Shown in pieces: positions 1 to 58,472 of a stretch of 64,000 bases of DNA. This DNA is from Dictyostelium discoideum (Eukaryota): assembly GCA_000004695.1 (NCBI GenBank), contig CM000153.2, positions 5,280,001 to 5,344,000 on the forward strand, in the 5' to 3' direction. Numbering within the stretch: position 1 is the first letter of the stretch; every line of letters begins with the position of its first letter. Both the position numbers and the translations under genes were made by a program. The notes under the pieces were generated by a model that searched no databases, had not been told where the DNA came from, and worked only from the letters and a program-made list of their open reading frames with translations.

Positions 1-121
1 ACCAAGTTCATTATTAATTATTCAACTATCACCTAATCAATCACCATATTATGTTCAATCTTTTTGGGGAATTGATAATGGAAAGGATTTAATTGTAACA
101 GAGAATTATAATTGTTTAGAT

Positions 122-3100
122 ATGGTTAATAAATTTCAAAATAATAATAATAATCAATTTTTAGATATTAATTTAGTATCATTCTCTGAGCAAATATTAG
201 GTACACTATTAGTTTGTCCAAAAGAGAGTAAATTTAAATCTGTTCAATCTAATGATATTCTTGGTCAAAATAGTACTCCTACACAAACAACAGTTGCTTC
301 CAATACTTCAAATTCATTACCACCACTACCTTTATCACAGCAACAGCATCAACAAACACCACCATCACATCCATTACCACAACCACCATCACATTCTCAT
401 TTTCATTCTCATTCTCATTCAAATTCACATTTACAACCAAATTTACAATCATTATTGCAACAAAGTTCAACACTTTCTTTAATTGTACCAAGTCCATTAA
501 AATCACCAATTTCATTTAGACAACAACAACAGAATCAACAATTACCAATAAAATCACAAACTTTAATTTCAATTAAAAATGATAGTATTAACTTTCAAGA
601 AGATTTTGAAACTAAAAATAAAGAGAAAGAAAATAATATATTTTATAATTCACCTTTATTAAAATTACCACAGATGCAAAAACCAATACCAATAATATTT
701 CAAAAGTTTATTACAAATATTAATGCACAATTTCTAATGATTCAATGGCTTTCTAAATTAGATGAATTCAATCAAACTTATCAACAATTAGTTTCTAATA
801 TTAAACATTTAACAAATCCTCATCAATCTCCATCAATAAATCAAAATAATACCAATACTACCAATTCAACATTTACATCTCAAGAAGAAATAAAATTAGC
901 AAAATCATCATCCTTTTCATCAATGTCTTCAGTTTCATCATCGTCATCTTCTTCATTATCATATTCTTTATCTACACAAAGTGTATTTAATAATAATAAT
1001 AATAATAATGATGATCATTTTTATTTAAAACTTAACTTACCAATTAAAGTTAATAAAAAAATGGTAGAAGTAATTCAAAAAAGATTTCAATCTATTCAAG
1101 ATCAATTGAAAAAGAATAGTTCAACAACTTTTTCAGATTTATTTTATTCAGTTTTTCCAAATATTTATACAAACTATAGAGAATTGGTATTATGTAAAAA
1201 GAATTCACCAATGCCAATGATAACTATTACCTTTTCACCAGATTCTCAATCATCACCACCAAATTCAACACCATTAACAGCTCATATTAAATCATCAAGT
1301 TTTTCATCTAATATTAATGGTTATCCTATCACCACCAGCACTACTACCTCTGCCACCACCACTACCACACCAATTAATTCATCATCTTCAAATACAAATT
1401 CAACAGCAGCAGCAGCAGTAACAAAAACAACTAATTCACCAATATCATCAAATTATAATAGTAATTATCAATATAATAGAACTGATAGTAATAGAAGTAA
1501 TAGTAGTAATAATGGTATGACAAAATCTCATTCATCTTCATTTTCAACTGGTTCAAGATCAAATTCAAATTTAACTGAATTATTATTACCAAATCAAATT
1601 ATATCAACAATGGATATTGATAAATTTAAGATGGGAGAAATTGTATTTCAAAGTATTTTAGTAAACTTTCATTTAGATTCAAAGAAATTACCATTGAATG
1701 TTATATATAGTAAATTGGTCTTACTAGTATTAATTAAAGCAACACATTTCTCACAATCTAGATCGATTAAAGAAATGTATAGATTAATTTCAAAACATTT
1801 AAAAAATCAAAACCAAATTAATATATTCAATCAAAAGTTTAAACCAATCTTTAAACAACTTTCAAATGATAATCCACATCTTCAATTGAATTGGATATTG
1901 TTAATTGAAGAATGGTTTCCTGATGAATGGGAAAATCCAAAACAGTTATTCCCAAGATCAACAAATGAAATTAAAGGTTCATTCTTTGGTAAAAGATTAT
2001 TAACACCAGCAATTCATCAACATTTGTTTACACCAGATGGTCAATTTATTAAGCGTAATAAATATGGTAAAAAAGATGTATCTTGGTATCCTGAGAAAGA
2101 ACCAGTTTGGTATTTTAAAAAGTATCCTGAAATTGCAGGTTATGAATATGCAGCAACTGAACTAATGAGATCATTAGGTATTAAGAATTTACCATACTCT
2201 GAATTGATTTTATTCTATGATCCACAATTAAAAAAATCATATCCAGTATTATTAACTTTAGCTGTACAAGGTAAATGTATTTCTGATATTTGGTTATCAT
2301 CACAATCAAATATAACATCATCATCATCATCATCATCAACATCAACATCAACATCAATACCAAATTCTAGTCCAACAACAAATTTTAATTCACATTTAAG
2401 TGAAATTAATGAAAATTTATTAGATAAACATAATACTGGTTTATTGATAATTTCTTCATTACTTTTATCAGTTGAAGATGGTAAACCTGATAATTTCATA
2501 TTATCAGATAATGGTAAATATTTAACACCAATTGATAATGATCGTTGTTTTATAGCACCATCAACAGTTTGTGAAAAAGGATCATCATTCATCTATGTAT
2601 TAATGGAACAGAAAAAGAAATTAGTAATGAAATCAATATTATTTAATCTATCAATGATGAAAGAGAAAGTAGATGAATCAGTACAACGATTCTTTTTAGA
2701 TTTAGATTGTTTTGAATTCCTTAAAGAATGGTTAGAGAATTTAATCTATGTTCATGATAGATATTCAACTCTTTTACCAGAAGAAGAATTAAATTCACTC
2801 TATAATCAAAATAATTGTATAGTTCGTATATTTTTTACAACTCAAATGATTCATAATCTTTATAATACATTATTAAATATTCAATATCATTTTAAATATT
2901 CAATAACAAATAGTTATTTAGATTTAATTTCAAAATTATTTGATCCATTTGTTTTTAAACAATATCAATTATCATTTAATATTTGTAATAATAATAATAA
3001 TAATAATAATGATCAAAATCAAAATTATTTAAAATCTTCACCCACAATATTATCATTACAAGAAAGATATAAGTCAATGGTATTTTATAATAATGGTATT

Positions 3101-4497
3101 AATAATTTAAAACAAATTGTAAATATGTTAGGAATTACAAATCAAGAATTATTTGGTGAAGCAGTAAGAGTAAAGAATGAACCATCAACGGCTTTAGCAT
3201 ATTTAAAGAAAATGAATCAACGTAAACAAGATATTAAAAATACAAATCAAAAGATTTTAATGAATAGTTCACCAAATTCTAGTCCACCAAATCAAAGTCC
3301 ACCAAATTCAATTAGTAATTTATCAACTTGTTTAAATTTATCAATCCAACAACAAATAACCTTACCAAATCAATTACATCAACATCAATATCAACAACAA
3401 CAACTATATAAACAATTACAACAACAACCATCACCATCACCATCACCACAACAACAACAACAAAATGAAATGATTAATACAATTGATGTGTCACAATTTA
3501 ATAAAAAACAATGTGTAGAATTTGAAAAGAAATTTAAAAATGAATTTCCAAATGCAGAGAGTTTTTCAATTCATAATTCATTATTTACAGATTCTTATAT
3601 AAAGAAACTTAGTTTCTCTCATATTCAATTTTTAGATTTAAGAAATTCTGAAAAATTAACACGTGCATCACTTGGTTATCTTATAAAGATAACACCAGAA
3701 TTAATTTATTTAAATATTAGTGGTTGGAAATCATTGAAAAAGTTAATGTTTACAAGTAATTCAAATTTTGAAATGGGTTTAATTGATTTAAATCAATTGG
3801 TTACTCTAGAGGATGAAACTCAAATTCCACCTACAAAACTTAATAAATTGGTTGTCAATGATTGTTGTAATTTAGAGATTATCGATTTCTATTGTTCAAT
3901 GCCTCAATTAAAAACTTTAGATTGTTATAGAAATAATAAATTGGAAAAAGTTCGTTTAAATTATAATGTAAAATTAAATACTGATATTGATGATTCAAAA
4001 ATTTTAAAAAGACCTTTAAATTTTATAATTTTAGGTGATAAAAATGTTGGTAAAGTAAGTATAATAATTTTTAAAAAATAATAAAAAAAAAAAAAAAAAC
4101 TATATAAAACTAATTAATTAATTAAATAATTAAAAAAAATAGACATCAGTTATAAAATTATTTAAATATAAAAGTAGTATAAAATTAATGCTTCCAAATT
4201 TTTATGAATCAACTTTTGAAAATCCAATTCCAGTTGAAATTTTAAATATAATTGAATCAAAAATTAAATCAAATTGTTTCTGTGGATTTAATATTATTTT
4301 AGTTTATGATTGTTTTTCAGAAGAAAGTCTTGTTAAATGTAAAAAATGGTTATATAATTTTAAAAAGATTGTTGATCCATGTGATTATATTAGAATCACT
4401 TTAATTGGTAATAAATATGATTTATTATCAATTAAAGTTAATGATAATGATGTTAATGTAAGTTTTAAAAAAAAAAATATAAAAAAAAAAATATATG

Positions 4498-4529
<32 letters not shown>

Positions 4530-4733
4530 TAATTGTTTATTTTTATTTTTATTTTTAATTTTAATTTTTTTTTTTTTTTTTTTTTTTTTCTTTATTTATA
4601 GTCTTTTTCTAGGGAATTTAATATTAAAACATTTAAAATTTCAACAAAACAAAATAATTATGGTGAATTAAATATAATTGGAAATCATTTATTTGAACGT
4701 TGTAGTCAAGATTGTAGAATTATTAGCAAATAA
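122..4733 (+). CDS. Large multidomain protein, possibly 5'-partial: N-terminal Q/N/S-rich low complexity, atypical kinase-like region, leucine-rich repeats, C-terminal Ras/Roc-like small-GTPase domain. Exons join(122..4054,4143..4457,4602..4733).
   Basis: Long ORF 122..4081. The frame is open upstream to position 2, so the true start may lie outside the window. Region ~2030-2560 has kinase/APH-like motifs (DGKPDNFIL ... IDNDRCF). LRR-like repeats at ~3600-3990 (LDLRNSEKLTRASL.., LNISGWKSLKKL.., LVVNDCCNLEII.., LDCYRNNKLEKVRL). The P-loop GDKNVGK is interrupted by a gtaagt intron at 4055 (phase 0) and resumes after ag at 4141-4142 with TSVIKLFKY. G4 motif IGNKYDL lies in exon 2. A second gtaagt intron runs 4458..4601. 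Exon 3 carries a G5-like ISTK and ends with TAA at 4731-4733. The switch-II DxxG motif is not recognisable. Confidence 0.5.
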
Positions 4734-5068
4734 AAAATTTTATTTTTATTTAATTTATTTTTTGGAAATTAAAAAATAGTTTAAAAAAAAAAAAAAAAAA
4801 AAACAAAAAAATTAAAAATTAAAAATAGAATAAAAAAAATAATAAAAAAAAAAAACAGTAATCAAATTTTATGACATCACAAAAAAACGTTTTGTTCAAT
4901 TTTTTTTTTTTTTTCAATTTTAATTTTTTTATTTTTTTATTTTTTTTTATTTTTTTTTTTTTTTTTTTTTCTTAAAAGGATGAATATGAAAACGATAAAA
5001 ATAATTTATTATTTTCAAAATTCAAAAAAAATAAAAGAAAAGAGGTGTTTTCATTCATTAAAAAGAAA

Positions 5069-6454
5069 ATGAATTTTTCAAAATTATTATTTTCAATAAT
5101 AGTAGTTTTAACAGTTGTGGTACTATTATTTAATAATGAAAATATTTTAGTTGAAGCACAAGTTGGTAATCTTTGTATTAAATGTTTAGAATTTGGTGAA
5201 AGTTGTAATTCAAATGGTGCTTGTAGTAAAGATAGTGTTTGTACAAGCGATACTGAAAGATTTCAAGAAAATCCTGTTTGTTCAGAACCAAAAGAACTCG
5301 GTCAAGATTGTAAAAATGATGAACAATGTCGTTTGGGAACTAAATGTAAAAAAGAATTAAATAATGAATTTGGTTCTTGTTCTGATATTAAATTCGCACA
5401 GTATGTATAAAAATAATATAAAATAAATAATTGATTTTTAAAAGATTGATTTTAATAAAAAAAATTATATATATATAGAGTTGGAGAAAAATGTTCACAA
5501 GATTTTGATTGTTCAGGTAGACTTTTAAAATGTAAAGAAGGAATTTGTGTAAAACCAACTGGTGATTTACCATGTGGTGTAGAGAATCCATGTCCATTTG
5601 GTGAATACTGTCAATATTCAAGCAAAACTTGTAATAAACAATTAAAAGAAAATGATAATTGTTTACAATCAACTCAATGTCCAGTTGGTCATTTTTGTGA
5701 TGAAACCTCTAAAAAATGTAAAAAATCTTTCACTTTATTAGAAAATGATAAATGTGCTAGTTTTTCACATGATCAATGTAATACTGATCTTGATTTATAT
5801 GTATGTATAAAATAAAAATATATATATATATATACTTTCAATCCAATATAATAATTATAACAATTATAATCTAATATTTTTTAAATTATTATTATTATTA
5901 TTATTAGTGCGCAAAAGCAGGAATTTGTGAAAAACTTAATATTACATATCCAGGATTATGTTTAAGAATGGAGAATCATTGTTCACCATTTCATCAATGT
6001 TCATGTTCAGATTATAAATGTCATCCAACCAGAGAGTTTGGATCAAGTTTCGTAAAGACATATAAGGATTTCAATCAATGTATTGAGAAACATAAGTGTC
6101 AATTCACCTATAATAGATTTTCAAATAATTCATGTATCACCAAAAATTGTGGTCCACAATTTTGTAAATTCAATAGAGCACTCCAACCTGATAATCAATT
6201 GAATTGTGGTAAAGTTGCCATTACCAATTATTGTCAAACCGTTAACCATCTCTTCCCACCAATTAAATCAAAAATCTTTTTAAATCATTCAAAAGAAGAT
6301 TTATTCTTTTTTGCAACTTCTATTCCTTTCTTAATTTTATTCTTTTCAGTTTATGTTGAAATTAAATTAGCAAGAAAAGAAAGATTAGATTTAATTCATA
6401 GTCATAGAGATATTTCTTATGATTCTGACGAGGATCATAATAATTTTAATAATC

Positions 6455-9474: not shown

Positions 9475-9969
9475 TCTTATTATTACTATTTTTATTATTA
9501 TTATTATTTATTTGTACAAATCTAATTTAATAATTATTTAAAAAAAAAAAAAAAAATTAAAAATTAAAAAAAAAATTCTGAAAAAATTGGAAAAAAAAAA
9601 AATTAAAAAAAAATAAAATAAAAAAATAAAAAATAAAAAAAAGGAAAAGATATTTAGAAATGTATTGTTTCAATAAATTTATTGGTTTGTATTTATTAAT
9701 TAAAACATCATTTTTAGAAATTTTTTTCTTTTTTTTTTTTATTTAAAAATTAAAATTTCTTTGAAAAAAAAAAAAAATTAAAAAAAAAATAAAAATAAAA
9801 AAAAAAAATTAAAAAAAAAAAAAAAAAATAGAAAAAATTAAAAAAAAAAATATTTCCCAAATTTAAACAAACCTTATATACCTTTCAAATAAATAAAATA
9901 AAAAAAACTTCATAGTTGTACGATTACTCCCTTTTATATATAAATTTCTCAATACATATTATTATAATT

Positions 9970-10919
9970 ATGAGTTCGTATAATGGTAAAACTATTCAAC
10001 AATCATTAGATGATAATGGTATTGTTTTATTTAGGAAAAACGAATTAAATAACAATAATAATAATAATAATTTAAACAATAATAATAATAATAATAATAA
10101 TAATAATTTAAATAATAAAATAAATCTACCTGCATTTGGTAAAAAGAAGTTCAGTGAAGAAGAAGCAAAAAGGATTCAAGAACTTCTAAGTAAGGATGTT
10201 GATTCTAGTGTTTTAAAGGTTAGGGAAGTTCCCGGTGGTTGTATGTATATATATATTATTTATTTATTTTTTATTATTATAATAACTGTTCTAGCCAATA
10301 ATTATAATAATAACTAATTATAATAATAATAACCAATAATAAAGCAAAATCAGCATATTTAGAAAAAGATGAAGCAATTAAATTAGCAAATGAATTATTT
10401 GGAGATGAAGGATGGTCATTAAAGATAATATCAATGTCACAAGATCAAATAGATGTTAGTCAATTTGTTTATACAGCACATGTTAGAATAATATTAAAGG
10501 ATGGTTCATACAGAGAGAATGTTGGTTGTGGTAATACAAGAAACATTAACGGTATTGCCAATGCAAAGAAAACCGCAATTTCTGATGGTCTAAAACGTTG
10601 TCTCAAACTTTATGGCAATGGTTTAGGTAATAGTTTATCAGGTAATAAATTCAATAAAAGTATTGTTAATTATAATAACAATAACAATAATCGTATCATT
10701 AAAAATGAAAATAATAATAGAGCTCAACAACAACTACAATTACCACCAGCAGTATTAACAGCAACAACTACAACAACAACATCTGTAACACTTAATATAC
10801 CACAAAGTAAAATCGAAAATAATAATAATAATAATAATAATAACAATGGGTTATCAACACCCGAAGCAACTGTACCATATCAATATAATCACCAAAATGT
10901 AAATAATAATAATAATTTA

Positions 10920-10963
<44 letters not shown>

Positions 10964-11240
10964 GAGTAATAATATTGGACTTTCACCACCTAAACCACCT
11001 GGTGTTACATTTCATCCTTATGGTAATAAACCATTAAATATTAGTCCTTCTCATGTAAATAAACAACCAATAATTAGTGTTCCTCAAAAAGTGAATGTAT
11101 CAAATTCTTTTCATCCTCCTCTTCAACAACAACAGCAACAACAACAACATTCACAACAACATTCTCAACAACAAATGGAGGATATAGAAATACAAGAGTT
11201 TTCATTAGAAATGGATAGTGCCTTAGTTGATGTCCAATAA
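9970..11240 (+). CDS. rad52: Rad52/Rad22 family DNA repair/recombination protein. Exons join(9970..10240,10345..11240).
   Basis: Conserved Rad52 N-terminal domain is split by a phase-1 gtatgt intron. The sequence reads ...LLSKDVDSSVLKVREVPGG / SKSAYLEKDEAIKLANELFGDEGWSLKIISMSQDQIDVSQFVYTAHVRIILKDGSYRENVGCGNTRNINGIANAKKTAISDGLKRCLKLYGNGLGNSL. The C-terminus is long and N/Q-rich. The track ORF start at 9916 is TTG; the first ATG is 9970. Confidence 0.75.
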
Positions 11241-11518
11241 ATTAATTAATTAATAATATCAAATATACATACATATATATAATAAAATATAATAAATAAA
11301 TAATACAGTGTGTTTTACTGTTTTTTTTTTTTTTTAGGTAATTTTTTTTTTTCTTGTTTATTTTTTTTTTCTTTGAATTTTGCTTGGAGTATTTTTTTTT
11401 ATATTTTTTTTTTTTTCTTTTTTCATTTTTTTATTTTTTTTTTTTTTAATATTCTATTTATATAATATATAATATATAATATTTATAAAGTTTAAAATTA
11501 ATTAAAAATATAAAAATA

Positions 11519-12169
11519 ATGGGAATAGAAATTGAAAGATTCTTTGGAGGTGTAATTGATTCAAATGAAAATAATATTAGATTTGAAACAGCAGATATTG
11601 TTTTACTTTCAGGACCAACATTATGTGGTAAAACATCATTACTTTTTCAATATGGATATACCTATGCAAAACAAGGTTATAATGTTTTATTTATATGTAA
11701 TAAAAAAAAGTTTCAACAAAGCTTACCTTTCTTGCCTATAGGTTTCATTAAAGATGATTTTATTTTAAAAAAATTAAAAATAAAGTAAGTATATATATAT
11801 ATTCATTTATTAATAATAAATAATAATATTTACATATTACACAAATTACACAAAAAATGTTATTAACATTTATATAATTTTTAAAAATAATTAAATAAAT
11901 AAAGGTATATTGAAAATGATGTAGAATTAAGGAATTATTTATTTGAATTTCCAAGTTTATCATATTTACCAGATTTAATATTAATAGATGATATATCATT
12001 TTATTTTATCTCTTCAATGTATGAAAGAAATGTTACACTTGGTAAAACATTTGCTTTCATAAAAGAAACTGTACAATATATAAAAAATCAAAAACTTATA
12101 AAATATAATCAACAAAATAATAACAATCAAGATCAAAATCAAAATCAAGATCAAGATCATCAGAATTTA

Positions 12170-12204
<35 letters not shown>

Positions 12205-12739
12205 TATGGATTGTATTGTAATAGTATCAGATATAAGTGTAATGAATAATGATAGTTCGAATACTTCTACTACTACTACTACTGCTACTGCTGCTGATCA
12301 ATCACAATCACATCCAATACAGCAGGTTCAAAAAATACAAGTTGGAAATGTACCAACATTCATCTCACCAAATCATCCAAAATTTCTTTTTATTCTCCAA
12401 AGATGGACTAGTTTAGTTATTACTATCAATGAAATTTTATCTATTAATGATCCACCACCATCAACTCTTCCTCAACAACCTGCAAATACTCCACAACAAC
12501 AACAACCATATCAACAACACTATCAACATCAACAACCCTCTCATAAAAAATATATACTATCAATTTTAAAATATAAAGATGCAAATAATCCTAATTTCCT
12601 TAAAGATTATACATTTTGTTATAATGTCAAATATCAAGGTCAAAATCATCAAAATAATTCATTTTCATTGGATTCTATTCAAATTCCTAAACAAACAACA
12701 ATTGCAACTGATGACAACGAAAGTACCCAACCTTTATGA
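11519..12739 (+). CDS. RecA/Rad51-paralog-like P-loop NTPase (XRCC2/Rad51-paralog or KaiC/Elp6-like fold). Exons join(11519..11784,11905..12739).
   Basis: Walker A GPTLCGKTSLLFQYGYTYAKQGYNVLFI. The phase-2 gtaagt intron acceptor is aaag at 11901-11904. A Walker-B-like hydrophobic strand ends in DD (LILIDDISFYF). The C-terminus is low complexity. Confidence 0.4.
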
Positions 12740-17646: not shown

Positions 17647-19535
17647 ATGGATTTCAATCCAGTACCACCACCAAGAGAAACACTCAGAGCTTATTTATCA
17701 AAAAAAGGACATGGTAGGAATTATATATATATAAAAAAAAAAAAAAAAATAAAGATCTAACATATATTAACATTTTTTTTTTTTTTTTTTAAAAATGAAA
17801 AAAGTTGTGAAAAATTGGAAATTAAGATTATTTGTATTAAAACCAGGTTCTAGTTATATGGAATATTTTGTAGATGAAACAGTAAGTTTAATTTTAATAT
17901 TCCAATTTAATTTTATTTTATTTTTTTATAAATCCTGATTTTTTTTTTTTTTATATTTTTTTTTAGAAAGAACAACAACATTTACCACAAGGTAGAGTAC
18001 CATTATATGGTACTAGAGTTATGGAATATGTATATAATAGTAATAATAATCCAAGAGAATTTTGTTTATCAGTAGAGACAGAAAATAAGAATTGGATTAT
18101 TTCAACAGGATCAAAAGCACAACAATTGGAATGGATTGAAGCAATTAAACATGCCATAGAGTCAGCAGTTGAAACAGACGAAATTAAATTACAAAAACAT
18201 AAATCAATTGAAAAACAGTTACAATTGGATGGTAAAAATAAAAATAAAATTCCAGTTTTAAAATTATTATTACTTGGTACTGGTGAATCTGGTAAATCAA
18301 CAGTTGTAAAACAAATGAAAATTTTACATCATAAAGGTTTCTCAAAAGAGGAGGAAGAATTTTATAGGAATTTAATTTATATAAATCTATTGGATGGTAT
18401 GGCATTACTCATTCATGTAATCAAAGAAAATAATATAGAAATTCCACAAGAAACTTTATCAGCAATTAAAAATTATAGTTCATGGTATAGAGTTTATATT
18501 GAAAAAAGAAATAAAAATGGTATTAGAAATAATCCAATTGGTTCAATGATACCAATTTCAATTTTAAATAATAATAAAGATAATAATAATAGCAATAGTA
18601 GTAGTTTAAAAAATAATAGTGGTGGTAGTTCAAGTAGTGAATTAGATAAAAAAATGACACATCTTAGTTTAGATGGATCAACTTGTATAAATTCAAATTC
18701 TGCTTCACCAAATGGACCATCATCATCTACAACAACATCAACAATAAATACACACAATCGTTCAAATAGTGATGGATCAAGTAATAATATATTTAATGTT
18801 CAAGATTTTGGAATTCCACCAATAATTACAAATTATATATCAACGATTTGGTCGGATCCAGTTGTACAATCAGAGGTGATGTTACAAGCTCAAAAGTATC
18901 ATATTAATGAATCCACTCAATATTATTTGAATGAGATAAAGAGAATAGGTAAACCAACATACCAACCTGTAAATTTAGATATCCTAAAATCACGTGCAAC
19001 TACCAATGGTGTGGTTGAAACTGATTTCAATGTAAATGGTGAAGTTATATTTAGAATTGTTGATGTTGCAGGTCAACGTGGTGAAAGAAAGAAATGGATA
19101 AACTTTTTCGATGATGTAACTGCAATAGTTTTCGTTGCAGCTATAAATGAATACGATCAGAAATTGGTCGAAGATAATTGTACCAATAGACTTCATGAAA
19201 GTTTGAATCTATTCGATTCGATTTGTAATGATTCAACTTTTCCAAAGACTTCAATCATATTATTCTTAAATAAAATCGATCTTTTCCGTGAGAAATTAAA
19301 AAGAACCTCAATCAATATTTGTTTTCCAGATTATAATGGTGATCAATCTTATGAAAAATCTTCAAATTATATAAAGAATAATTTTCTTTCAAAGAAAAAA
19401 GGTGGTAATGGTATAAATTCTCAAAATTTTATTTATTTCCATTTCACATGTGCCACTGATACTAAAAGTTTTGAAACAGTTTTTAATTCTGTTAGAGATA
19501 TTATAATTTCAAAAACTTTAGAATTTTATTGTTAA
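17647..19535 (+). CDS. Heterotrimeric G-protein alpha subunit with an N-terminal PH domain and an N/S-rich insert. Exons join(17647..17713,17805..17881,17967..19535).
   Basis: G-alpha motifs KLLLLGTGESGKSTVVKQMKILH (G1), RATTNGVVE (switch I), DVAGQRGERKKW (G3), FLNKIDLF (G4) and TCATDT (G5). Two short exons plus the start of exon 3 encode a PH-domain-like module (AYLSKKGH|VVKNWKLRLFVLKPGSSYMEYFVDET|KEQQHLPQGRVPLYGTRVMEY...NWIISTGSKAQQLEWIEAIKHAI). Intron phases are 1 and 0 with donors gtagga and gtaagt. Confidence 0.75.
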
Positions 19536-22046: not shown

Positions 22047-23965
22047 ATGATAAATAGATTAAATAGATTATGTAAAAAAAATATATTAAATAATATTTTA
22101 AATAATAACAAAAATGTTAGTAATAGAATAATAAATAGGTTTTATTGTAATTTAAATACAACAAATCTAAAAATAAATAATGATAATAATTTAAAAGAAA
22201 GTATTAGAGAAAAAATTAAAGATATACCAAGTTTAAATGAATTTTTAAGAAATAGTAATAATGAAATTAATGAAAATAATGAAAATAAAAGTAAAATTGA
22301 AACTGAAGAAGAATATGAATTACCACCATATTTATCATCATTACCAAATGATAAAGGTAATGGTAGAAAAGTTTGGATTGAAACCTATGGTTGTCAAATG
22401 AATGTTAGTGATGAAGAAGTTATTTGTTCAATTATGAAATCATCAGGATATACTATTTCAAATGATTTCAATACTGCTGATATTGTATTTTTAAATACAT
22501 GTTCAATTAGAGAGAATGCAGAAGCAAAGATTTGGTTACGTTTAACCGAGTTGAGAGCAATTAGAAGAAAACAAGGTAGACCAAATTTAATAGTTGGTGT
22601 TTTAGGTTGTATGGCAGAACGTTTAAAAGAGAAATTATTAGAGTCTGATATGAAAGTTGATATAGTGGTTGGACCTGATGCATACAGATCATTACCATCA
22701 TTATTGGCAACACTCGAAGATGGTGAGCAACAAACTGCAATCAATGTAATATTATCAGCTGATGAAACTTATGCTGATATTAAACCAGTTAGAAAATCTG
22801 ATAATCAAGTTTCAGCATATGTTTCAATTATGAGAGGTTGTAATAATATGTGTTCCTATTGTATTGTACCATTTACAAGAGGTAGAGAAAGAAGTAGACC
22901 AATTGATTCAATACTTAGAGAAGTTAAAGATTTATCTGATCAAGGTTTTAAAGAAATTACTTTATTAGGTCAAAATGTTAATTCATTTAATTATTATGAA
23001 GAATCAAATAATAATAATAATGAAAATTTTATTGATACTCAAAAAAATAAATTAGAATTGGAATCATTAAAACCAAGAGAAGGTTTTAAAACAATTTATA
23101 AATCACCAAAAAAAGGTATAACATTTACAAAATTAATGGAATTAGTTTCAAAAGTTGATCCTGAAATTAGAATTAGATTTACAAGTCCACATCCAAAAGA
23201 TTTTCCAGATGATGTAAATATTATTATTTATTTATTTATATATATATATATATTTTAGTTAATTGATTTATTAATTAATTTTTTTTTTTTTTTTTTTTAA
23301 TAATTTAGTTATTAGAATTAATTAAAAATCAACCAAATATTTGTAAACAATTACATATACCAGCACAAAGTGGTAGTAGTAAAGTATTAGAATCAATGAG
23401 AAGAGGATATACTAGAGAAAGTTATATAGAATTAATTGATACAATTAAAAGAGTATTACCAGGTTGTGCAATTTCATCAGATTTTATTAGTGGATTTTGT
23501 GGTGAATCAGATCAAGATCATAATGAAACAATATCATTAATGGAATATGTTGGATATGAGAATGCATTCATGTTTATGTATTCACTTCGTGAGAAAACTC
23601 ATGCACATCGTCAATTGAAAGATGATGTTCCAACAACACTTAAAAACTCAAGATTAACTCAAGTTGTAGATACATTTTACAAAAGATTAAAAGAAAAGAA
23701 TCAATTGGAGATTGGTAATCATCATTTAGTTTTAGTGGATGGTTTTAGTAAAAGATCAGAAAAAGATTTCGTTGGTAGAACTGATACCAATAAAAAAGTT
23801 TTAATCAGTAATGATATTGAAAATCAAGATATTAAAGTTGGTGAATATTATATAGTAGAAATTATAAAAGGTGATTCTGAAGTTACCTTAAAAGGTAAAC
23901 CAATTATGAAATCTTCAATTCAACATTTTAATAATATTTATAATCATAAAAATAAATTTATTTAA
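22047..23965 (+). CDS. CDK5RAP1/MiaB-like tRNA methylthiotransferase (radical SAM), probably mitochondrial. Exons join(22047..23213,23309..23965).
   Basis: MTTase N-domain [17 protein letters not shown]. Radical-SAM CxxxCxxC motif [21 protein letters not shown]. The phase-0 gtaaat intron is followed by [23 protein letters not shown] (TRAM-proximal region). The N-terminus is a basic presequence. Confidence 0.75.
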
Positions 23966-39652: not shown

Positions 39653-39797
39653 ATTTAATAAACTTTATTTGTTTTTTGAAAAAAAAAAAAATTTAGGGTC
39701 AGTGATTTTTTTTTTTCACTACGCTACTGTAGTGAAATTAAATAATAAAATTCACTACGCTACTGTAGTGAAATTTTATTGAAAATTCCCTACAACA
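39653..39797. repeat. Terminal inverted repeat (right) of the transposon
   Basis: Reverse complement of 36437..36582 with two mismatches. Confidence 0.8.
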
Positions 39798-42700
39798 ATC
39801 ACCACCTGCAATATATTTATATTCAGTTTTATCATTTGGATCATTTTTTGTTGTTGTTGTTGTTTTTGCTGTTATTGGTAATAATTTTTCATCCATTTCT
39901 TTTTTCTTTTTATCTAATGAATCATTTATAATTTGATAAACCATACCAATTGAATTTGATTGAATTTGTTGAATTGTAATAAGATGTGGAGACCATTCTT
40001 TATCGACCCAATTCTTTAATTGTACTGTAATTAATGAATCAGCACCATAGTTTATCATTTTAATATTTGTATTAATTTTTGATGGATCAATTGAAAGAAG
40101 TTCAGAAACTTTGTTTAAAAATTTATTTTTTACATTTGTTGATGATGATGATTGATTGGTATCATTTTCCATTGATATTGAATTATCAACATTAATTGGA
40201 TTTAAAATGAAATCAAATTTTTGATGAAGTTTTTGTTTAAAACTTTTGAATAATGGCCAATTGAAATTATTAACAAATGCATTGGTTGGCATATTTGGAT
40301 TTTGAATTTGTAAATCTAAAGTACCCAATAATTGATTTGGTGATATTAATTCAACACCTTGACCACCTAGTACTGCTTCAACAAGTTTATGTCTTGAAAG
40401 ATAACCTCTATCACTTACACCACCAATGTTAATTGTAAATGATGGTAATCCAATTGATTTACGATATTGTGATAACGAATCCACTACACAACATGCTGAA
40501 ACATAACTACATTGATCAAATGAACCTAATACTGAAACTACTGATGATGCTAAAATGAAATTAATAATTTTCCAATCTCTTTTAATTGATAAATTATGTA
40601 AATTAACTGCACCAAACGTTTTTGCACTATGCGAAACATTTAAACTATTCATATCAATATCTTTAAGTTTTTTATTAATTTGTAAAGCTGCAAAATGAAA
40701 TATTGAATCAATATTTGTAATTGTTGGATTATCTTTTAAAACTTGATCAATTGTTTTATTAATTAAATTCCAATTACTAATATCACATTTTTTGAAATGA
40801 TATTTAATTTTATTGTTATTATTATTATTATTATTGTTGTTGTTATAATTCATTAAAAATTCTAATTCCCATTTTAATGATGATTTTGAAAGAATAATTA
40901 TATTTTCAACAGTTGAATTATATTTTGTTATCCATTTTAAAACTTCTAAAATTAAACCAGTTTGACCTGTAACCAATACATTTTTACCAAGATTTTTAAT
41001 TTTATAATCTGATTTTAATATTGAATAATCAATCATTGATTCTTTTTCAATTAATTTATCTATGATATCAGTATCATGTGAAATTACAATTTTACCAACA
41101 TGTTTTCTTTCTTTAATTGATTCAATTGATTTTTTAATATTTGAATTTGAAAATTCTGTAATTGGTATTAAAGCATTTAAAGTTTCATTTTCAATTGATT
41201 TTGAAATTGACTGTAATAATTTCTTAATTGTTGATTTTCCAACTTTTAAAATTTCAATACTATTATAACCAATATTATATCTATATCTACTATTATCAAT
41301 AAATTCATTTGGATTTAAATGAGTAGTTGTTAAATCTACAATTCTACCTTTTGGATTTAAACATTTAAAATTTGTATCCATAAATTCACTTGATAAAGTA
41401 TTAATAATTAAATCAACACCATGAGTTTCATAACCTAATTCAATTAATTTGTTTTTAATTTGTTTTTGATAATTTGTGTCTCTTGTTGAATAAATTCCAG
41501 TAATTAAATCACCATAGGTATTAATTAGATATTGTTTCTTTTCTTCTGATCCAACTGTAACAAATATTGGTGATGAATGATTATTTGATTTTAATATTTC
41601 CAATCCTGATAATCCAACACCACCAGATCCTGAATGAATTAATACTGATTCTTCATCTCTTAAATTACCAACATCATATAAACAATAAAGTGATGTTGAA
41701 TAAACTGCTGGAATTGAAGCTGCTTGAACATGTGTAATCTTTGATGGTTTATGACATGCTAATAATGAATCAATAATAATATGAGATGATGATGTTTCAT
41801 ATGCAATACCATAAACTTGATCACCAACTTTAAATTCTTTAGATGATTTAATTCCAACACGACTTACTACACCAGAAAAATCAAAACCAATACCAGCTTC
41901 ATTTACTTTTATCATTTCATTATATTTCAAATAATCTTTATAATTTATACCAGTTGCTTTAACTTTTACTTCAATTTCATATGGTTCTAAATCAATTTGT
42001 TTTGAATTTAATTGATATTCAAAATGTTCATCTAATTTTGAAACTAATTGATCTTGTTGTTTTGATAAATCATGATATGATTCAGATTTATAAGAATTCT
42101 TTAAATTTTTTAATTCTTTTTTATACATTTCAAAATAAACAGTACCACTATTTTTTATATAAAATTCTCTTTGAATATTATTTTTTGGATTAATTAAATA
42201 ATCAATGGTTTTGAATAAATCCAAATCATTTGTTAATGAATCTTTATCAAAATCCAATGTAAATAATTGTAAAGTTGGAATTTCATCAAAGTATCTTGCT
42301 GCACCTAAAACTGATGATGATAAATAATTACTTGATTGTGAATCACATGTAATTAAAACATGAGTACATTTTGATTTTAATTCATATAATTTTTGATTAA
42401 TTTGAACATATTCAAATGTTACTGATTTAAAGTTTTCCAATGTTAATTGTTCAATTGATTTAATAAAATAAATGATTGAATTATTTGTAATTGTTGTTGA
42501 TAATTTGTAAAATTCTTCAATTGTTGATACTTTTATTATTTTACAATTATTATAATGATTTTCAAATTTATTAATTAATTGTTGTTGTTGGAGTTGTTCA
42601 TCTTGATAACAATATAAAATTACTTGATCAAATGTGTTTATTGTTTTTGGTTGTAATTTTAATGATGGTTTTTGAGCTTGAATAATAATTGATTTAATAT

Positions 42701-42803
42701 CACTATCAGATATACTTGAAGATTTAATCATTATATCAGAATTGAAATTACAATTAACCAATAAGTTTTTCAATGATTCTTTATTATTTTCATTATTTAA
42801 TAG

Positions 42804-42868
<65 letters not shown>

Positions 42869-45800
42869 CATTTATTATTAAATAACCATTTGGTGTTAAA
42901 ATTTGATAAATTTGATTTAATGAATATTCAATATCTTTTGTTAAATTTGAAATATTTGAAACAATAATTAAATCATAATATGATGGATTTAATTTTTGTT
43001 TTTCTAATAATGAATTATCAACATCTAAACCTAATGAACGATAAAGAATACTTAAATAACCCTTATCTACTTTTGATAATTCTAATTTAGCATCTTTTAA
43101 AATTGATGAATTATTATCACTCCATGTATATTCAATATCAATTTCATAATGTGGATTTTCTTCGAGTAATGAATTGATTTCATTCAATAATAAAGTTGAT
43201 TTTGATAAATTATTACCACCAAATTCTAAAATTCTAAATTCCATCTTTCTATTAATTAATGGTTTAATAGTTTCTATAACAACATTTGGAATTAATAAAC
43301 CATCATCTACTTGATTATTTTGATAAATTGATTTAAATTCTAATGGTGATTGAATTTGTGAATCTTTTGATTGAAGATATGGTGTATAAATAAAATCAGA
43401 TGGAGTTTCAATTAATAATGGATCTTTAACTGGTGTTAATGATTTAACTACCAAGTTATCAACTTCAATGATAACAGTACCATCTTCTAACATAACAACG
43501 ATAGATGAAGAGAGTAAATCATCAGATGGAGATGATTTTAAAGTTGAATAAATAAAGATACTTGAATGTTCATCTCTATTTTTTGGAATATTTGAAGCAT
43601 AATATCTTAAACCTTCAACTTTATCTGTTACAATTTTACAATTCTTTTGAATGTATAGAATAACGGTACCATGGAAACAAGCATCAATGAGTGGACAATT
43701 GAAAAATGATTGTTCATCATGAAAGTTTTCAGGTAATTCTAAGGATATTTCAGTTAATGAACAATTATCACCAATATAACATTCAACTACTTTACTAAAA
43801 ATACCATAAAAGTTTGCACCCAATTGAGTTTTCATTAGTGAATAAAATTCATCCCATGGAATTGATGATAAATTACATTTTGTTTGTTTAATATCTTGAA
43901 TATCCAATTTTTGTTTTTCTTCATGATAATTATCATTACTATTTAAGTGGAAATTAGAATTTGAAGTATTTATCCATTGATTATTCATTTCATCTTTTAA
44001 ATGAAATTGTGCTCTATATTCACTTTTACCAGTTTGATAAACATTTGTTTGTAAACATTGCCCAATACCATCGGTTAATACAAATGGTACCTTAAATTCA
44101 ATTGAATTAATTGTTAAATCTTGATTTGGATATAATTTAAATATATTATCAATATAACCTGTTCCTGGGAAATAACATTTATCAGATACATTATGACCTT
44201 TTAAATATTTGAATGCATCTTTTCCAGTATCAATTATTGTTTGATATGATTTAATAAATGGATTTGAATCTTGCATTGAATTACCGAGAATTGAAATTGG
44301 TGGTCCAATTAAATTATTTTTATGTTCAATTGATTTATTTAACCAATAATGTTGATCATCCCATTGATATAATGGTAAATTAAAATTACTAATAGCCTCA
44401 ATATTGCTATTTATATTATTAAATTGACATTTAAAATTAATATCATAAGCATCATCACAAAATAATTGTGAAATTGATTTTTGAAATTCTTCAACATCAT
44501 TCTTTTTCTTGTGAAGTGTTGAATAAACTGATATTGATTCACCATTTCTAAAGTATTGTGATTGTTTTGGAATCATTTGTTTTAAATAAAATGATAATGT
44601 TGGATGTGGTGCAATTTCAATGAATACAATATTTGAACCGATTTGATTATCTTCAATATGTTTATATAAATTTGAAATTGTTTGAGTGAATGAAACTGGT
44701 TTTGAAATATTATCAAAGAAATATTCAGAATCAAAAATAGTTGATTCATTAAATAAATTTGATGTAACTGTTGAAAATGTTGGAATAACAGGTTGACTTG
44801 ATTGAATATTTAAATTTAAAATATCATCTTTAATTATATTTTGACTACTTGTATGAAAACTTGATAAACTTCCTAACATTGCTGAGAATATTTCTTTTTC
44901 TTTTAATTCTTTTGAAATTTCATTTAAAATTTGTTCATTACCTGCGATTACAATTGATGATGGTGAATTATAACATGCAATTTCAATAGTTGGGTAACGT
45001 GACATATAGTTAGTTTTATATTCATCTGAACTAATGTTAATTGATAACATTTTACCTGACCCATTTGTTCTTATTTGTAATGTTGATCTATGATAAATTA
45101 AATAACATAATTGGTCAATATCAATCATACCTGAACAATAAGCAGTTGTTACTTCACCAAGACTATGACCCAACATAAATGATGCTTTTATACCCCAATG
45201 TTTATAAAGTTCATATAATGATACTTGAATAATTACAGTTGATGGTTGTGCCATTGTTTGTTCATGAACTGAACATTTATCACTATCTTGAATTGCTCTT
45301 AATTTCTCTAAAATTGAATATCCAAAATAATTTTTCATTTTATTATCTAGCATATCCATCGAATTTCTAAATACTTTTTCATTTTTATATAATTCTAATG
45401 CCATTGTATTATATTGTGATCCTTGACCACAAAATACAAATACAGTTATTGGATTATTATTTTTATTTGTAATTGTAATATTTGAAGAAGTACTACTTGA
45501 AGTTTGATATTTAACTTGATTTTCAACATTATTAAAATCATTCCAATCTTTTGCAACAATTACTGATCTTTGATAAAGTGATGTTGATTTATTATAAATT
45601 TGATTTTTAACAAATTCTTCAAAACTATATTGTGATTCATATTCTTTATTTTCAATAATTAATGATTGATATTTTTTTAATGATTCAACTGAATTTGCTG
45701 AAAATGGAATTAAATAATTATTTATTTTTATATTATTATGATTATGATTATGATTATGATTATTATTATGATTATTTATATTATTATTTATAGTATTATA

Positions 45801-47230
45801 ATTAAATTGAGATAATACTAAACAACAATTTGAACCAGTTGCACCAAAATTATTAACAACCATTGAAGTATTTTTAAATTTATTAAATGGAATTGGTTCA
45901 GTTACAACTTTTAAATTCCATTCTTTAAATTTAATTGCTGGATTTGGTGTTTTAAAATGAATATTTGGTGCAAAACATTTGTTTTTATACATTAAACAAC
46001 ATTTGATTAATGAAGCAATACCAGAAGCAGCTTCACAATGACCAATATTTGATTTAAATGATCCAATTAATAATGGAGTATCAGTTGAACGAGTATCTTT
46101 AAAAACTTTTGAAATACCTTCAACTTCAATTGGATCACCAGTTGGTGTACCAGTGCCATGTGCTTCAACATAATCTATATCAGATGGTTTAACAGTTCCA
46201 TTGGTTGATTGAATTGCATTTTTTAAATTTTCAGATTGTGAAATTGATGATGGTGAATAGAAATTTGATTTATCAGAATAACCAATACCATCAACATTTG
46301 CACTTGCACCATTTATTGTACAATAAATTCTATTACCATCTTTAATTGCATCTTTTAAATTCTTTAAAACCACAACACCAATACATTCACTTCTTACATA
46401 ACCATCAGCTGATGCATCAAATGATTTACATCTACCATTTGATTTACTTAATATATTCAATGAAGAATATGCTTTAAAAAAGTAAGAGTCTAATAAAATT
46501 AAAAAATTTAATTAATAAATAAATATAAAGATAAAATTAAAAAAACTATTAAAAAAAAATACATACCAAGTAATATATTAACACCACCAACAATTGACAT
46601 TTTTGATTTTTTATTTTTGATTGAATCATATCCTAATGCGATTGCATTTAAAGATGATGAACATGCAGTATCTAGAGTTATTGAATTACCATGAAGATCA
46701 TAACAATAGGAGATTCTATTTGAAATCGCATGATTTAAACTTGAGAATACATTTGATTTTACTTCATTTTTATTGATATTATGATAGTCACTTTCGGTAC
46801 AACCAATGAAAACCGAAGTATCTGTACCTTTGATTGAAATTGGATCAATTAATGAATCTTCTAATGCTTCCCATGTACATTTTAATAATAATCTTTGAAT
46901 TGGGTCAATGGTTGGTGCTTCATTTGGATTAATACCAAAAAAGAGTGGATCAAATGATTTAACTTCATCCAATGGTAATAGTCCTGAATAATTATTTGCA
47001 ATTTCATGATTTTTGAAAAAGTTATCATTGAATCTTTCTGATGTTTTCACTACACCATCGAAACCATTTATTAAATTATTCCATAATGTTTGAGGTGTAT
47101 TGTTTCTTTCATTTTCAATACTTCCACTTGGTAATCTAAAGCCAACACCAACAATTGCAACTAAATTTTCTTCAACATGTTTATCATCAACTTGTAAAAT
47201 TTCTGCTTTATTTATTTTATTTTGTTTCAT
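39738..47230 (-). CDS. Iterative type I polyketide synthase (KS-AT-DH-cMT-ER-KR-ACP). Its C-terminus reads into the transposon TIR and stops there. Exons join(complement(46567..47230),complement(39738..46479)).
   Basis: KS: DTACSSSL (exon 1), [19 protein letters not shown]: [18 protein letters not shown]: [17 protein letters not shown]. cMT-like: [15 protein letters not shown]: [19 protein letters not shown]: [19 protein letters not shown]: [11 protein letters not shown]. The phase-1 intron (donor ctt g|gtatgt, acceptor ttttattag) splits GGVNILL | [24 protein letters not shown]. The final 8 codons ([17 protein letters not shown]) are encoded by the TIR. Confidence 0.85.
39798..39802. repeat. 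Target-site duplication ATCAC (right copy)
   Basis: Matches 36432..36436. Confidence 0.75.
42803..42868 (-). repeat. (CAA)n microsatellite encoding a 22-residue polyGln inside PKS1 (cMT/linker region)
   Basis: ttgttgttg... run on the plus strand. The protein reads [37 protein letters not shown] versus [19 protein letters not shown] in the paralog. Confidence 0.85.
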
Positions 47231-56500: not shown

Positions 56501-57779
56501 TTCAAAATCAATTGAAAATAATACATTAAATTATTTAATTCCAATTACAGAATTTTCAAATTCAAATATTAAAAAAGCAATTGAATACATTAATGAACGT
56601 AAACATGTTGGAAAAATTGTAATTTCTCATGATACAGATATTACTAATAAATTAATTGAAAATCAACCTAAAATTGATTACTCTTTATTGAAATCAAATT
56701 ATAAAATTAAAAATCTTGGTAAAAATGTATTGGTTACAGGTCAAACTGGTCTAATTTTAGATATTATAAATTGGATTATGAAATATAATTCAACTGTTGA
56801 AAATATAATTATTCTTTCAAAATCATCAATGAAATGGGAAATGGAATTTTTAATTAACAACAATAAGACAAAAATTAAATTCTATTATAAAAGATGTGAT
56901 ATTGGTGGTGATTCAGATTCAATTAATAAAACATTTGATAAATTGTTTACAGAAAATCCAACAATTACAAACATTGATTCAATATTCCATTTTGCAGTTG
57001 TACAAATTACAAGAAAAGTAAAAGATATTGATATGAAATCATTAAATATTTCACATGATGCAAAAACAATTGGTGCAATTAATTTACATAATCAATCAAT
57101 TAAAAGAGATTGGAAATTAAGTAATTTCATATTAGCATCTTCAATTCTTTCAAAAGTTGGTTCATTAGATCAATGTGGATATGTTTCAGCATGTTGTGTA
57201 CTTGACTCATTTTCAAAATATCGTTTATCTATTGGATTACCTGCATTATCAATTAATATTGGTGCTATGGGTGGAAGTGGAATGGTTGCAAGAAGTGAAC
57301 TTGTTGAAACTGTACTTAATGGTCAAGGTTATAATTTAACCTCAACAAACCAACTATTAGGTACAATTGATTTATTAATTCAAAATCCTGGTCAAGAATC
57401 AAATAATTTAATGGTTGGTAATTTTAATTTCCCAGTTTTTAATAATTTCAAACAAAAGATTCATCAAAAATTTGATTTTATTTTTAATGCTCTTGATTCA
57501 AACTCTGAAAATGGTGATGGTAGTAATATCAAAAATTCAACAAATATTAAAGATAAATTTTTAAACAAAGTATCAGAATTTCTTTCAATTGATTCATCTA
57601 AAATTAATAATGATATTAAATTAATGAATTATGGTGCTGATTCATTAATTACTGTTCAATTAAAGAATTGGGTTGATAAAGAATGGTCTCCAAATTTAAT
57701 TACAATTCATCAAATTCAATCAAATTCAATTGGTATGGTTTGTCAAATTATAAATGATAATTTTGAAAAAAAAAAATAA
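50551..57779 (+). CDS. Iterative type I polyketide synthase (KS-AT-DH-cMT-ER-KR-ACP), a paralog of PKS1 in inverted orientation. Exons join(50551..51238,51325..57779).
   Basis: Same domain motifs as PKS1 ([83 protein letters not shown]). The phase-1 intron (ctt g|gtatgt ... aaaag) splits GGVNILL | [24 protein letters not shown]. The stop comes right after the ACP (...[11 protein letters not shown]). Confidence 0.9.
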
Positions 57780-57967: not shown

Positions 57968-58337
57968 CTCACTGAGAAAATTATCAAACGTTATCAAATA
58001 AATAAGTTGATTTGATAATAACGTTTCTTTAAAGAAAAAATAATAAAAAAAAAAAAATCAATTATTATCAAATTATTAAGTTAATAAAAAGAAACGTTAG
58101 GTAACAAAATCATTCCCAAAGATATTTCAGATTTTTTTAATTCAACGAATTACAAATTTTTATTTTTTTAAATTTTTTTTTTCAATAAAAAAAAGAAAAA
58201 TCATCAAACAAAAAAACAAGATATTTTCCATGGTTTTTTTTTATTTTTTTTTTTTTTGCTTTTATATAAATAACGTTTATTTTTTTTTATTTTTTTTTAT
58301 TATTTTTTTATTTAAACTAAATAGTATAATAAAAAAA

Positions 58338-58401
58338 ATGGAACAAGAAAATAATAATAACAAAGACATAAAAACAATTGATAGTATCAATATCAATAAT
58401 G

Positions 58402-58472
<71 letters not shown>

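Follow-up and report, generated by a model that had tools for sequence, protein, structure and literature searches.

The 64,000-nucleotide (nt) stretch of Dictyostelium discoideum DNA analysed here (positions 5,280,001 to 5,344,000 of contig CM000153.2; hereafter the window) opens inside a large gene on its forward strand. The encoded protein consists, in order, of a pseudokinase domain (KD1), a kinase domain (KD2), a conserved helical linker, leucine-rich repeats (LRR) and a Rab-like G domain, KD1 and KD2 being tandem copies of one atypical protein-kinase-like domain. We consider it probable that a single gene with this KD1-KD2-LRR-G domain architecture, together with the roles and the history of gene transfer proposed below, is the best overall explanation of the data. 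An earlier note, made from the DNA letters alone, had placed a kinase-like region before the LRRs and a GTPase at the extreme C-terminus, and this domain order was recovered. The kinase assignment also held, but the region proved to be two tandem domains, the first of them degenerate and overlooked in that note.

Nucleotides 2-4733 (+) form one three-exon gene whose 5' end lies beyond the window start. As judged from the sequence, the window carries the 3' four fifths of a single spliced gene with a predicted product of ~1800 amino acids (aa). A long open reading frame (ORF) occupies 122-4081 (+), and frame 2 is open back to nt 2. The first window residue corresponds to residue 346 of the NCBI D. 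discoideum model KAM9957641.1 (P0001; 1823 aa), with 92.7% identity and mismatches mostly in low-complexity tracts. This alignment and the open frame make the ATG at nt 122 an internal Met. Whether the ORF continues upstream of the window had been raised as a check; ~1 kb of coding sequence, 345 residues in P0001, precedes it. Residue numbers given here (K666, D786 and so on) count from the Met at nt 122.

Exon 1 ends at nt 4054, just after GDKNVGK (4034-4054), and exon 2 (4143-4457) opens with TSVIKLF, so that the P-loop is indeed split by an intron after GK, TS being encoded from 4143. Intron 1 (4055-4142, +; 88 nt; same junction in P0001) and intron 2 (4458-4601, +; 144 nt) both run from GTAAGT to AG and are in phase 0, with a G+C content (GC) of 5.7% and 4.9%, respectively, against 18-25% in the exons. 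Exon 3 (4602-4733) ends with a TAA stop at 4731-4733, and the spliced coding sequence of 4380 nt is in frame. The protein junctions GDKNVGK/TSVIKLF and VNDNDVN/SFSREF are identical in the independent model KAM9957641.1, and the junction-spanning residues are conserved in D. purpureum (P0002) and D. citrinum (P0003). Over the kinase region identity is 65% for P0002, an orthologue, and 48% for P0003, a paralogue. No paralogue of the gene was found elsewhere in the 64-kb window. The window has ~21% GC and encodes homopolymer-rich proteins; the introns, the 25% GC, the homopolymer tracts and the Dictyostelium-type neighbours of the gene (polyketide synthase, FNIP and G-alpha genes) indicate that it is genuinely eukaryotic.

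The two kinase-like domains differ sharply in their state of preservation. KD2 (1571-2986, +) begins with a helical lead-in (1571-1966), followed by the G-loop EIKGSFFGKR (1967-1996), the beta3 lysine K666 in WYFKKYPE (2108-2131), the alphaC glutamate E675, the catalytic loop EDGKPDN with D786 and N791 (2474-2494) and the motif PIDNDRCF with D805, N806 and D807 (2528-2551); the motif table thus has KD2 keeping all of K666, E675, D786, N791 and D805-N806-D807. The motifs singled out in the earlier note are located where it had put them, DGKPDNFIL at 2477-2503 and IDNDRCF at 2531-2551 in KD2, GNKYD at 4407-4421 and ISTK at 4638-4649 in the G domain. An alignment of 26 KD2 sequences shows no variation at the beta3 Lys, the Asp and Asn of the catalytic loop or the D and N of IDND, and at least 90% conservation of the alphaC Glu and the last Asp of IDND.

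The window holds the C-terminal two thirds of KD1 (2-1240, +), which matched a KD2-derived profile at E=1.3e-26 and was aligned with the intact KD1 copies of P0003, P0004, P0011 and P0015; the N-lobe lies upstream of the window. Its landmarks are a hinge, YYVQSFWG (~47-70), a degenerate catalytic loop, CPKESKFKSV (215-244), the motif IKND (563-586) and C-lobe helices extending to ~1240 (all +). The beta3 Lys, alphaC Glu, catalytic Asp and Asn and metal-binding Asp are all gone: YFK is replaced by HFS (upstream of the window, taken from P0001), the alphaC Glu by Gln, SDGKxxNF by KESKFKSV and IDND by IKND. KD1 also carries a low-complexity insert of ~100 aa, and the linker joining it to KD2 (1241-1570, +) is S/T/N-rich low-complexity sequence with no homology in profile searches.

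The loss of these residues from KD1 and their retention in KD2 identify a pseudokinase-kinase tandem. KD1 has decayed likewise in D. purpureum, whereas the paralogue P0003, the Naegleria protein and the bacterial proteins keep it intact. As most bacterial relatives retain the catalytic motifs in both copies, the pseudokinase state is specific to this lineage. KD2 is predicted to be a catalytically competent ATP-dependent phosphotransferase. JAK-type tandems, whose kinase family is unrelated, show the same arrangement, in which an intact kinase domain has a degenerate copy of itself directly on its N-terminal side. Two further observations concern these domains. The S/T-rich insert between the KD2 lobes (2294-2401, +) is ~26 aa longer than in P0001, is disordered in the AlphaFold2 (AF2) model and has the look of a coding microsatellite, polymorphic between strains, within a catalytic domain. 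A metagenomic relative of 4215 aa (P0066), annotated merely as an ankyrin repeat protein, has four kinase-domain copies, its KD1-KD2 tandem having been re-duplicated.

Searches of Pfam, NCBIfam and PDB sequences with the kinase region of the window protein returned nothing significant, and the same was true of Pfam and NCBIfam searches with the kinase region of bacterial relatives. PDB sequence searches with KD2 alone and with the 26-sequence profile gave nothing relevant. The AF2 model of KD2, built from the 26-sequence alignment, reached a predicted local distance difference test score (pLDDT) of 87 and a predicted template-modelling score (pTM) of 0.85, only the S/T-rich inter-lobe insert being disordered. 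When this model was compared with the PDB by Foldseek, all five matches at E<=0.001 were type II phosphatidylinositol 4-kinases (PI4KII) beta or alpha (E 7e-5 to 3e-4); aminoglycoside phosphotransferases (APH) scored only 6-7 in the fold comparison. As modelled, KD2 is therefore a protein-kinase-like fold in the PI3K/PI4K neighbourhood, with type II PI 4-kinase as its nearest solved fold. The region had been called kinase/APH-like. Its kinase part stands, since a protein-kinase-like fold is predicted with confidence, contrary to the outcome of no kinase-fold prediction for which the earlier note had allowed; its APH part does not, the closest fold being PI4KII and no Pfam APH match being found.

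KD2 shares with PI4KII alpha and beta (PF00454 clan) the fold of the catalytic domain, the ATP-binding Lys, the catalytic Asp/Asn and the activation-loop Asp. Identity is 13-15%, with no significant Pfam or PDB sequence match, and the domain is here tandemly duplicated inside a multidomain protein of ~1800 aa. The catalytic loop differs as well, DGKPDN in KD2 compared with DRGNDN in PI4KII, and the CCPCC insertion of the latter is missing. PF00454 (PI3_PI4_kinase) gave no match on the window protein and remained below threshold on two family members (KD1 of P0003, 18.5 bits against a cut-off of 27.1; one of the 26 KD2 segments, E=0.0043). K666, D786, N791 and D805 of KD2 were equated with K152 and the loops 308-315 and 344-364 of PI4KII alpha by motif order only (PMC3974213).

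KD2 is followed by a linker (2987-3562, +) in which a helical segment (~3053-3232), conserved with Paracaedibacter P0004 and D. purpureum P0002, precedes Q/P/S-rich low-complexity sequence. The LRR segment (3563-3979, +) comprises ~6-8 repeats of the cysteine-containing or F-box-LRR type. Pfam LRR_4 matched the window protein at E=0.0014, below the cut-off. In the AF2 model the segment consists of alternating short strands and helices forming a beta/alpha solenoid; it aligns with Paracaedibacter P0004, and the homologous segment downstream of KD2 in relatives, bacterial ones included, matches LRR_6 at 1e-39 to 1e-46. The solenoid and these strong LRR_6 matches in bacterial relatives bear out the LRRs that had been read from the sequence after the kinase region.

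The last 169 residues match Pfam Ras (PF00071) at E=1.7e-12 (47.7 bits against a cut-off of 21.6). The match spans all three exons and is far beyond chance, and the Rab-like G domain accounts for the C-terminal 160 aa. Exon 1 contributes beta1 and the P-loop as far as GDKNVGK (4016-4054, +); exon 2 (4143-4457, +) the TS of G1, a degenerate switch I, LNIIES (4242-4262) and the G4 motif GNKYD (4407-4421); and exon 3 (4602-4733, +) a G5-like ISTK (4638-4649), the last helix and the C-terminus ...CSQDCRIISK. The best PDB sequence matches were Rab35, at the top, and Rab1, and Foldseek ranked Rab1, Ypt32, Sec4 and Ras highest for the AF2 model of the LRR and G region. Aligned to Rab35 with HMMER, the domain shows G1 (GDKNVGKT), G4 (GNKYD) and G5 (ISTK, compared with TSAK), as the earlier note had described. 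Switch II reads LNIIES in place of DTAGQE, so that the DxxG motif reported missing is indeed lost together with the Q. Switch I, not mentioned in that note, is lost as well: LMLPNF stands in place of TTIGVDF, and the switch I Thr is gone.

Loss of G2 and G3 is common to all three dictyostelid clusters (P0001, P0002 and P0003); G5 is not conserved in D. purpureum. The predicted domain is one strand short in the beta2/beta3 region and ends 9 residues before the stop. The C-terminus contains no CC, CXC or CAAX motif; P0002 and P0003 end in ...CCSDCKNIK and ...CPNENHHI. The domain thus shares with Rab GTPases the P-loop, NKxD, an STK motif in the place of SAK and a Ras-family match above cut-off, and differs from Rab GTPases and pseudoGTPases in lacking the switch I Thr, DxxGQ and a prenylation motif, in its shortened beta2/beta3 region and in being fused to the end of a large protein. 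The motif pattern is that expected of a pseudoGTPase, which may bind nucleotide and may not switch or hydrolyse it in the usual way, in agreement with the pseudo-GTPase or nucleotide-binding scaffold proposed earlier.

LRRs, a small-GTPase-like domain directly after them (the LRR segment, 3563-3979, immediately precedes the G domain start at 4016) and a kinase in one polypeptide recall the Roco proteins (LRRK2; Dictyostelium GbpC and Roco4), in which Dictyostelium is rich. In the kinase-bearing members of that group the kinase is C-terminal to the COR domain; here it is N-terminal, atypical and PI4KII-like rather than TKL-type, and the G domain is Rab-like, terminal and without G2 and G3. On the window protein no COR family appeared in hmmscan at E<=10, no Pkinase or PK_Tyr_Ser-Thr match was found, and Pfam Roc scored 25.7 bits, below its cut-off of 27. 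Membership of the Roco family was rejected on account of the missing COR domain, the other kinase type and the other domain order; that the protein does not follow the order LRR-Roc-COR-kinase had been recognized from the sequence alone. The hidden Markov model searches recommended in the earlier note were thus borne out for Ras, which was above cut-off, and not for Pkinase/APH, which gave no match, or for LRR_4 and Roc, which stayed below their cut-offs.

A HMMER scan of 1.84 billion representative proteins identified 291 relatives of the kinase region (counted as clusters at 50% identity), 136 of them at E<=1e-10 and nearly all 1200-4200 aa long. Closer examination covered the best 150 of the 291 matches, and names come from a look-up of 30 proteins and one genome scan, which put labels on a minority of the members. 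In motif scans and iterative profiles most members carry two tandem copies, each with DxKxDN ... IDND. The family is, by its sequence features, a tandem domain whose KD2 has K, E, DxKxxN and IDND, joined to a downstream repeat domain (LRR, ANK, FNIP or Sel1), and the window protein fits this description.

Labelled members come from obligate intracellular symbionts of amoebae (Paracaedibacter, Caedimonas and Dependentiae), Dictyostelium and Naegleria. P0004, which shares 40% identity with the window protein in the kinase region, and P0083, which bears ANK repeats and an F-box, both belong to Candidatus Paracaedibacter (Odyssella) acanthamoebae and lie on its 2.47-Mb contig. P0036, from a Paracaedibacteraceae metagenome-assembled genome (MAG), has a patatin domain. 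The Naegleria gruberi protein XP_002671568 (P0015; 1961 aa), annotated merely as a serine/threonine protein kinase, reads KD1-KD2-LRR-protein kinase (Pkinase E=3e-52). P0126 and P0131 form a second dictyostelid subfamily with FNIP or ANK repeats. A profile-alignment search of genome contigs located four family loci in Dependentiae, Caedimonas and Alphaproteobacteria MAGs. The bacterial loci are uninterrupted ORFs of ~2000 aa with 37-46% GC and bacterial or symbiont-type neighbours. The N-rich metagenomic members have no homopolymer runs and so look like AT-rich bacteria rather than dictyostelids. In one Dependentiae MAG (L001) a Sel1-repeat protein and a ~800-aa WD40 protein (689-3292 and 9933-12344) stand on either side of the family member; clustering of eukaryote-like repeat proteins in this way is typical of effector islands in symbionts.

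Among the best 150 of the 291 matches the Rab-like G domain is confined to the three dictyostelid clusters. A distant metagenomic member of 1506 aa (P0141) has, after its LRR, a canonical Ras-like domain at residues 1381-1506 with intact G1, G2 and G3 (GWGGCGKS, YDPTVEDTF and DTAG), and is by its sequence an independent kinase-LRR-small GTPase fusion. No relatives were matched on plasmids (tblastn) or in viral contigs (profile-alignment search). Word-index homology searches returned 0 matches with a 554-aa region, 1 with the 26-sequence KD2 alignment (A1) and 6 fragments with a second alignment (A2); low-complexity words probably crowded the index, since the limit of 8000 candidates was hit with the 554-aa region and with A1. 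The 30 looked-up proteins are named at source as "hypothetical protein" or after accessory domains (ANK, TPR, patatin and, in Naegleria, the C-terminal protein kinase). The searchable literature, including a dictyostelid GTPase survey and a Legionella pan-kinome study, yielded no account of either the family or the architecture, an absence that is not proof of novelty; the D. purpureum orthologue was not traced in the supplements of the GTPase survey.

In a neighbour-joining tree (~250 columns, 100 bootstraps) the dictyostelid LRR-GTPase proteins formed one clade (97%), sister to P0004 and P0005 (86%) and nested in a clade of 26-31 members with labelled bacterial proteins and Naegleria (73-81%). 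The KD1 copies formed a clade of their own apart from KD2 (87%), which indicates that the tandem duplication predates the subfamilies. The dictyostelid FNIP/ANK pair joined two metagenomic proteins (100%) and then Paracaedibacter P0083 (95%). The sister relationship between the dictyostelid LRR-GTPase clade and a Paracaedibacter protein points to gene transfer between bacteria and amoebae, and there is good evidence that the family has been exchanged between amoebae and the bacteria living inside them. As to direction, we are inclined to think that the kinase-LRR core of the dictyostelid LRR-GTPase subfamily moved from bacterium to amoeba.

Several points weigh against this reading as a whole. 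The splice junctions draw their support from sequence signals, conservation and one automated gene model. The kinase-LRR gene might instead end at the in-frame TAA at 4079-4081, with a separate small GTPase from the 114-aa ORF (4188-4532) onward; the long ORF does end at 4081, and the shorter one does begin with an ATG at 4188. Such a separate ORF would be without beta1 and the entire P-loop, both of which are in exon 1, and the Pfam Ras match begins upstream of intron 1. The intervening 4055-4142 is a frame-preserving GTAAGT..AG segment of 5.7% GC, the distance from the stop codon to the ATG is just 133 nt, and the independent model and two other dictyostelid proteins have the same uninterrupted sequence. 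Two genes are thus highly improbable; the 114-aa ORF is simply exon 2 and stands apart merely through the introns, as the earlier note had surmised. Activity, substrate and nucleotide binding across the kinase family are read from motifs, and the model of the LRR and G region, built from 5 sequences, is of moderate confidence (pLDDT 72). That KD2 is inactive nevertheless seems unlikely to us, and we are equally sceptical of the wider proposal that the whole protein is a non-enzymatic scaffold, with KD2 as a second pseudokinase and a G domain that has lost nucleotide binding. KD1 is already dead, two of the five G-domain motifs and some of the beta2/beta3 region are missing, and a strain-variable S/T-rich insert sits between the KD2 lobes, all of which would suit a scaffold. 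Against it, the catalytic residues of KD2 are all kept in D. discoideum, D. purpureum and the paralogue while KD1 decayed in D. discoideum and D. purpureum, which argues for selection on KD2 catalysis, and all three dictyostelid clusters conserve G1 (GxxxxGKT/S) and G4 (NKxD). The substrate class of KD2 is left unsettled by its fold, because PI4KII alpha itself has protein kinases as its closest neighbours in structure, because the CCPCC palmitoylation insertion that helps to form its PI pocket (PMC3974213) has no equivalent in KD2, where neither the motif nor an insertion between the beta3 Lys and the hinge is found, and because the DGKPDN loop is of the Ser/Thr-kinase DxKxxN type. On these grounds KD2 could, as a possibility we take seriously, be a protein Ser/Thr kinase resembling those structural neighbours of PI4KII alpha (CtkA, actin-fragmin kinase, CotH and Fam20) and not a lipid kinase, the architecture being otherwise unchanged. 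No sequence-level relationship to actin-fragmin kinase (Physarum), CtkA (H. pylori), MavQ (Legionella), CotH or Fam20 was detectable, and none of these is tandem or joined to LRRs and a G domain. Speaking against a protein kinase, PI3_PI4_kinase is the sole Pfam family weakly matching more than one family member (KD1 of P0003 and one KD2 segment), IDND resembles the IDNG of PI4KII, and the fusion partners in the family point to membranes (the patatin phospholipase domain in P0036 and the Rab-like domain here). The top fold match and these membrane-related partners give us a slight lean towards a lipid, and a phosphoinositide or other membrane lipid is our tentative first choice of substrate.

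The evolutionary reading faces comparable objections. The tree is a neighbour-joining tree on ~250 columns with mostly unlabelled metagenomic tips, drawn from the best 150 of the 291 matches. P0126, P0131 and the Naegleria member also place the family in several eukaryotic lineages, so that eukaryote-to-bacterium transfer or multiple transfers may have occurred. The family could accordingly be ancestrally eukaryotic (amoebal), with the dictyostelid gene vertically inherited and the bacteria having taken up a eukaryote-like effector. The bacterial members join the kinase module to the typically eukaryotic F-box, ANK, LRR and Sel1 domains, at least two dictyostelid subfamilies exist as well as one in Naegleria, and the closest labelled relative of each dictyostelid subfamily is a Paracaedibacter protein, which fits either direction. 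However, the dictyostelid LRR-GTPase clade lies inside a clade whose labelled members are bacterial except for one Naegleria protein, and a large majority of the ~290 clusters have a bacterial or metagenomic appearance (long intron-free ORFs without homopolymer tracts). The eukaryotic distribution among the few labelled proteins is also patchy. A eukaryotic origin therefore appears to us the less probable course, and bacterium-to-amoeba transfer of the kinase-LRR core is the direction we retain.

On the reading favoured here, KD2 would act as an ATP-dependent phosphotransferase, KD1 as a pseudokinase that regulates or scaffolds, much as JH2 does beside JH1 in JAK, and the LRR would recruit a partner. 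The G domain would bind guanine nucleotide and be unable to switch or hydrolyse it in the usual way, which would make it a fixed interaction or allosteric module and not a timer. The kinase-LRR core would have entered dictyostelids from a Paracaedibacter-like symbiont lineage, and the Rab-like domain would have been added in the amoeba. A more speculative analogy, which we put forward with considerable doubt, is that the protein may be a second, independently assembled machine of LRR, G domain and kinase, Roco/LRRK2-like in logic and built on a PI4KII-like family exchanged between amoebae and their obligate intracellular bacteria. With this in view, the Ras domain after the LRR in P0141 and the protein kinase after the LRR in P0015 would suggest a general functional coupling of kinase, LRR and output domain. 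A symbiont effector core, KD1-KD2-LRR, would then have been captured and wired to a nucleotide-locked Rab-like domain, for example in the control or sensing of phagosome or symbiont-vacuole identity.

The analysis brings to light a kinase-like family of considerable size (~290 clusters at 50% identity), modelled by neither Pfam nor NCBIfam, at the interface between amoebae and intracellular bacteria. To our knowledge, almost no effectors have been characterized in Paracaedibacter, Caedimonas and Dependentiae, and bacteria seeking to change the identity of a vacuole would have an obvious means in a PI4KII-like enzyme. Through the host copy, which can be knocked out in Dictyostelium, the biochemistry of the family becomes accessible to genetics. 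The gene can also be read as a natural experiment on how domains decay, one kinase copy being dead, the other kept and the G domain stripped of its switch, and it is a good candidate for gene transfer between domains of life with later fusion to a host-type domain and acquisition of introns.

Elsewhere in the window, two paralogous ORFs of ~2200 aa (39738-46460, -, and 51354-57779, +), on opposite strands and with ~5 kb between them, code for highly reducing type I polyketide synthases (KS-AT-DH-ER-KR-ACP). They are followed by an FNIP-repeat protein (58230-59834, +; Pfam FNIP E=1.6e-67); FNIP repeats also make up the C-terminal part of P0126, a D. purpureum member of the kinase family. Other ORFs encode a G-protein alpha subunit (18021-19535, +), which at 504 aa looks long for its family, a UPF0004/radical-SAM methylthiotransferase-like protein (22047-23258, +) and a cytochrome P450 (29664-30986, -). 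Directly downstream of the kinase-LRR-G domain gene, a small ORF (5045-5410, +) with a hydrophobic N-terminus and a Cys-rich body looks like a secreted Cys-rich protein.

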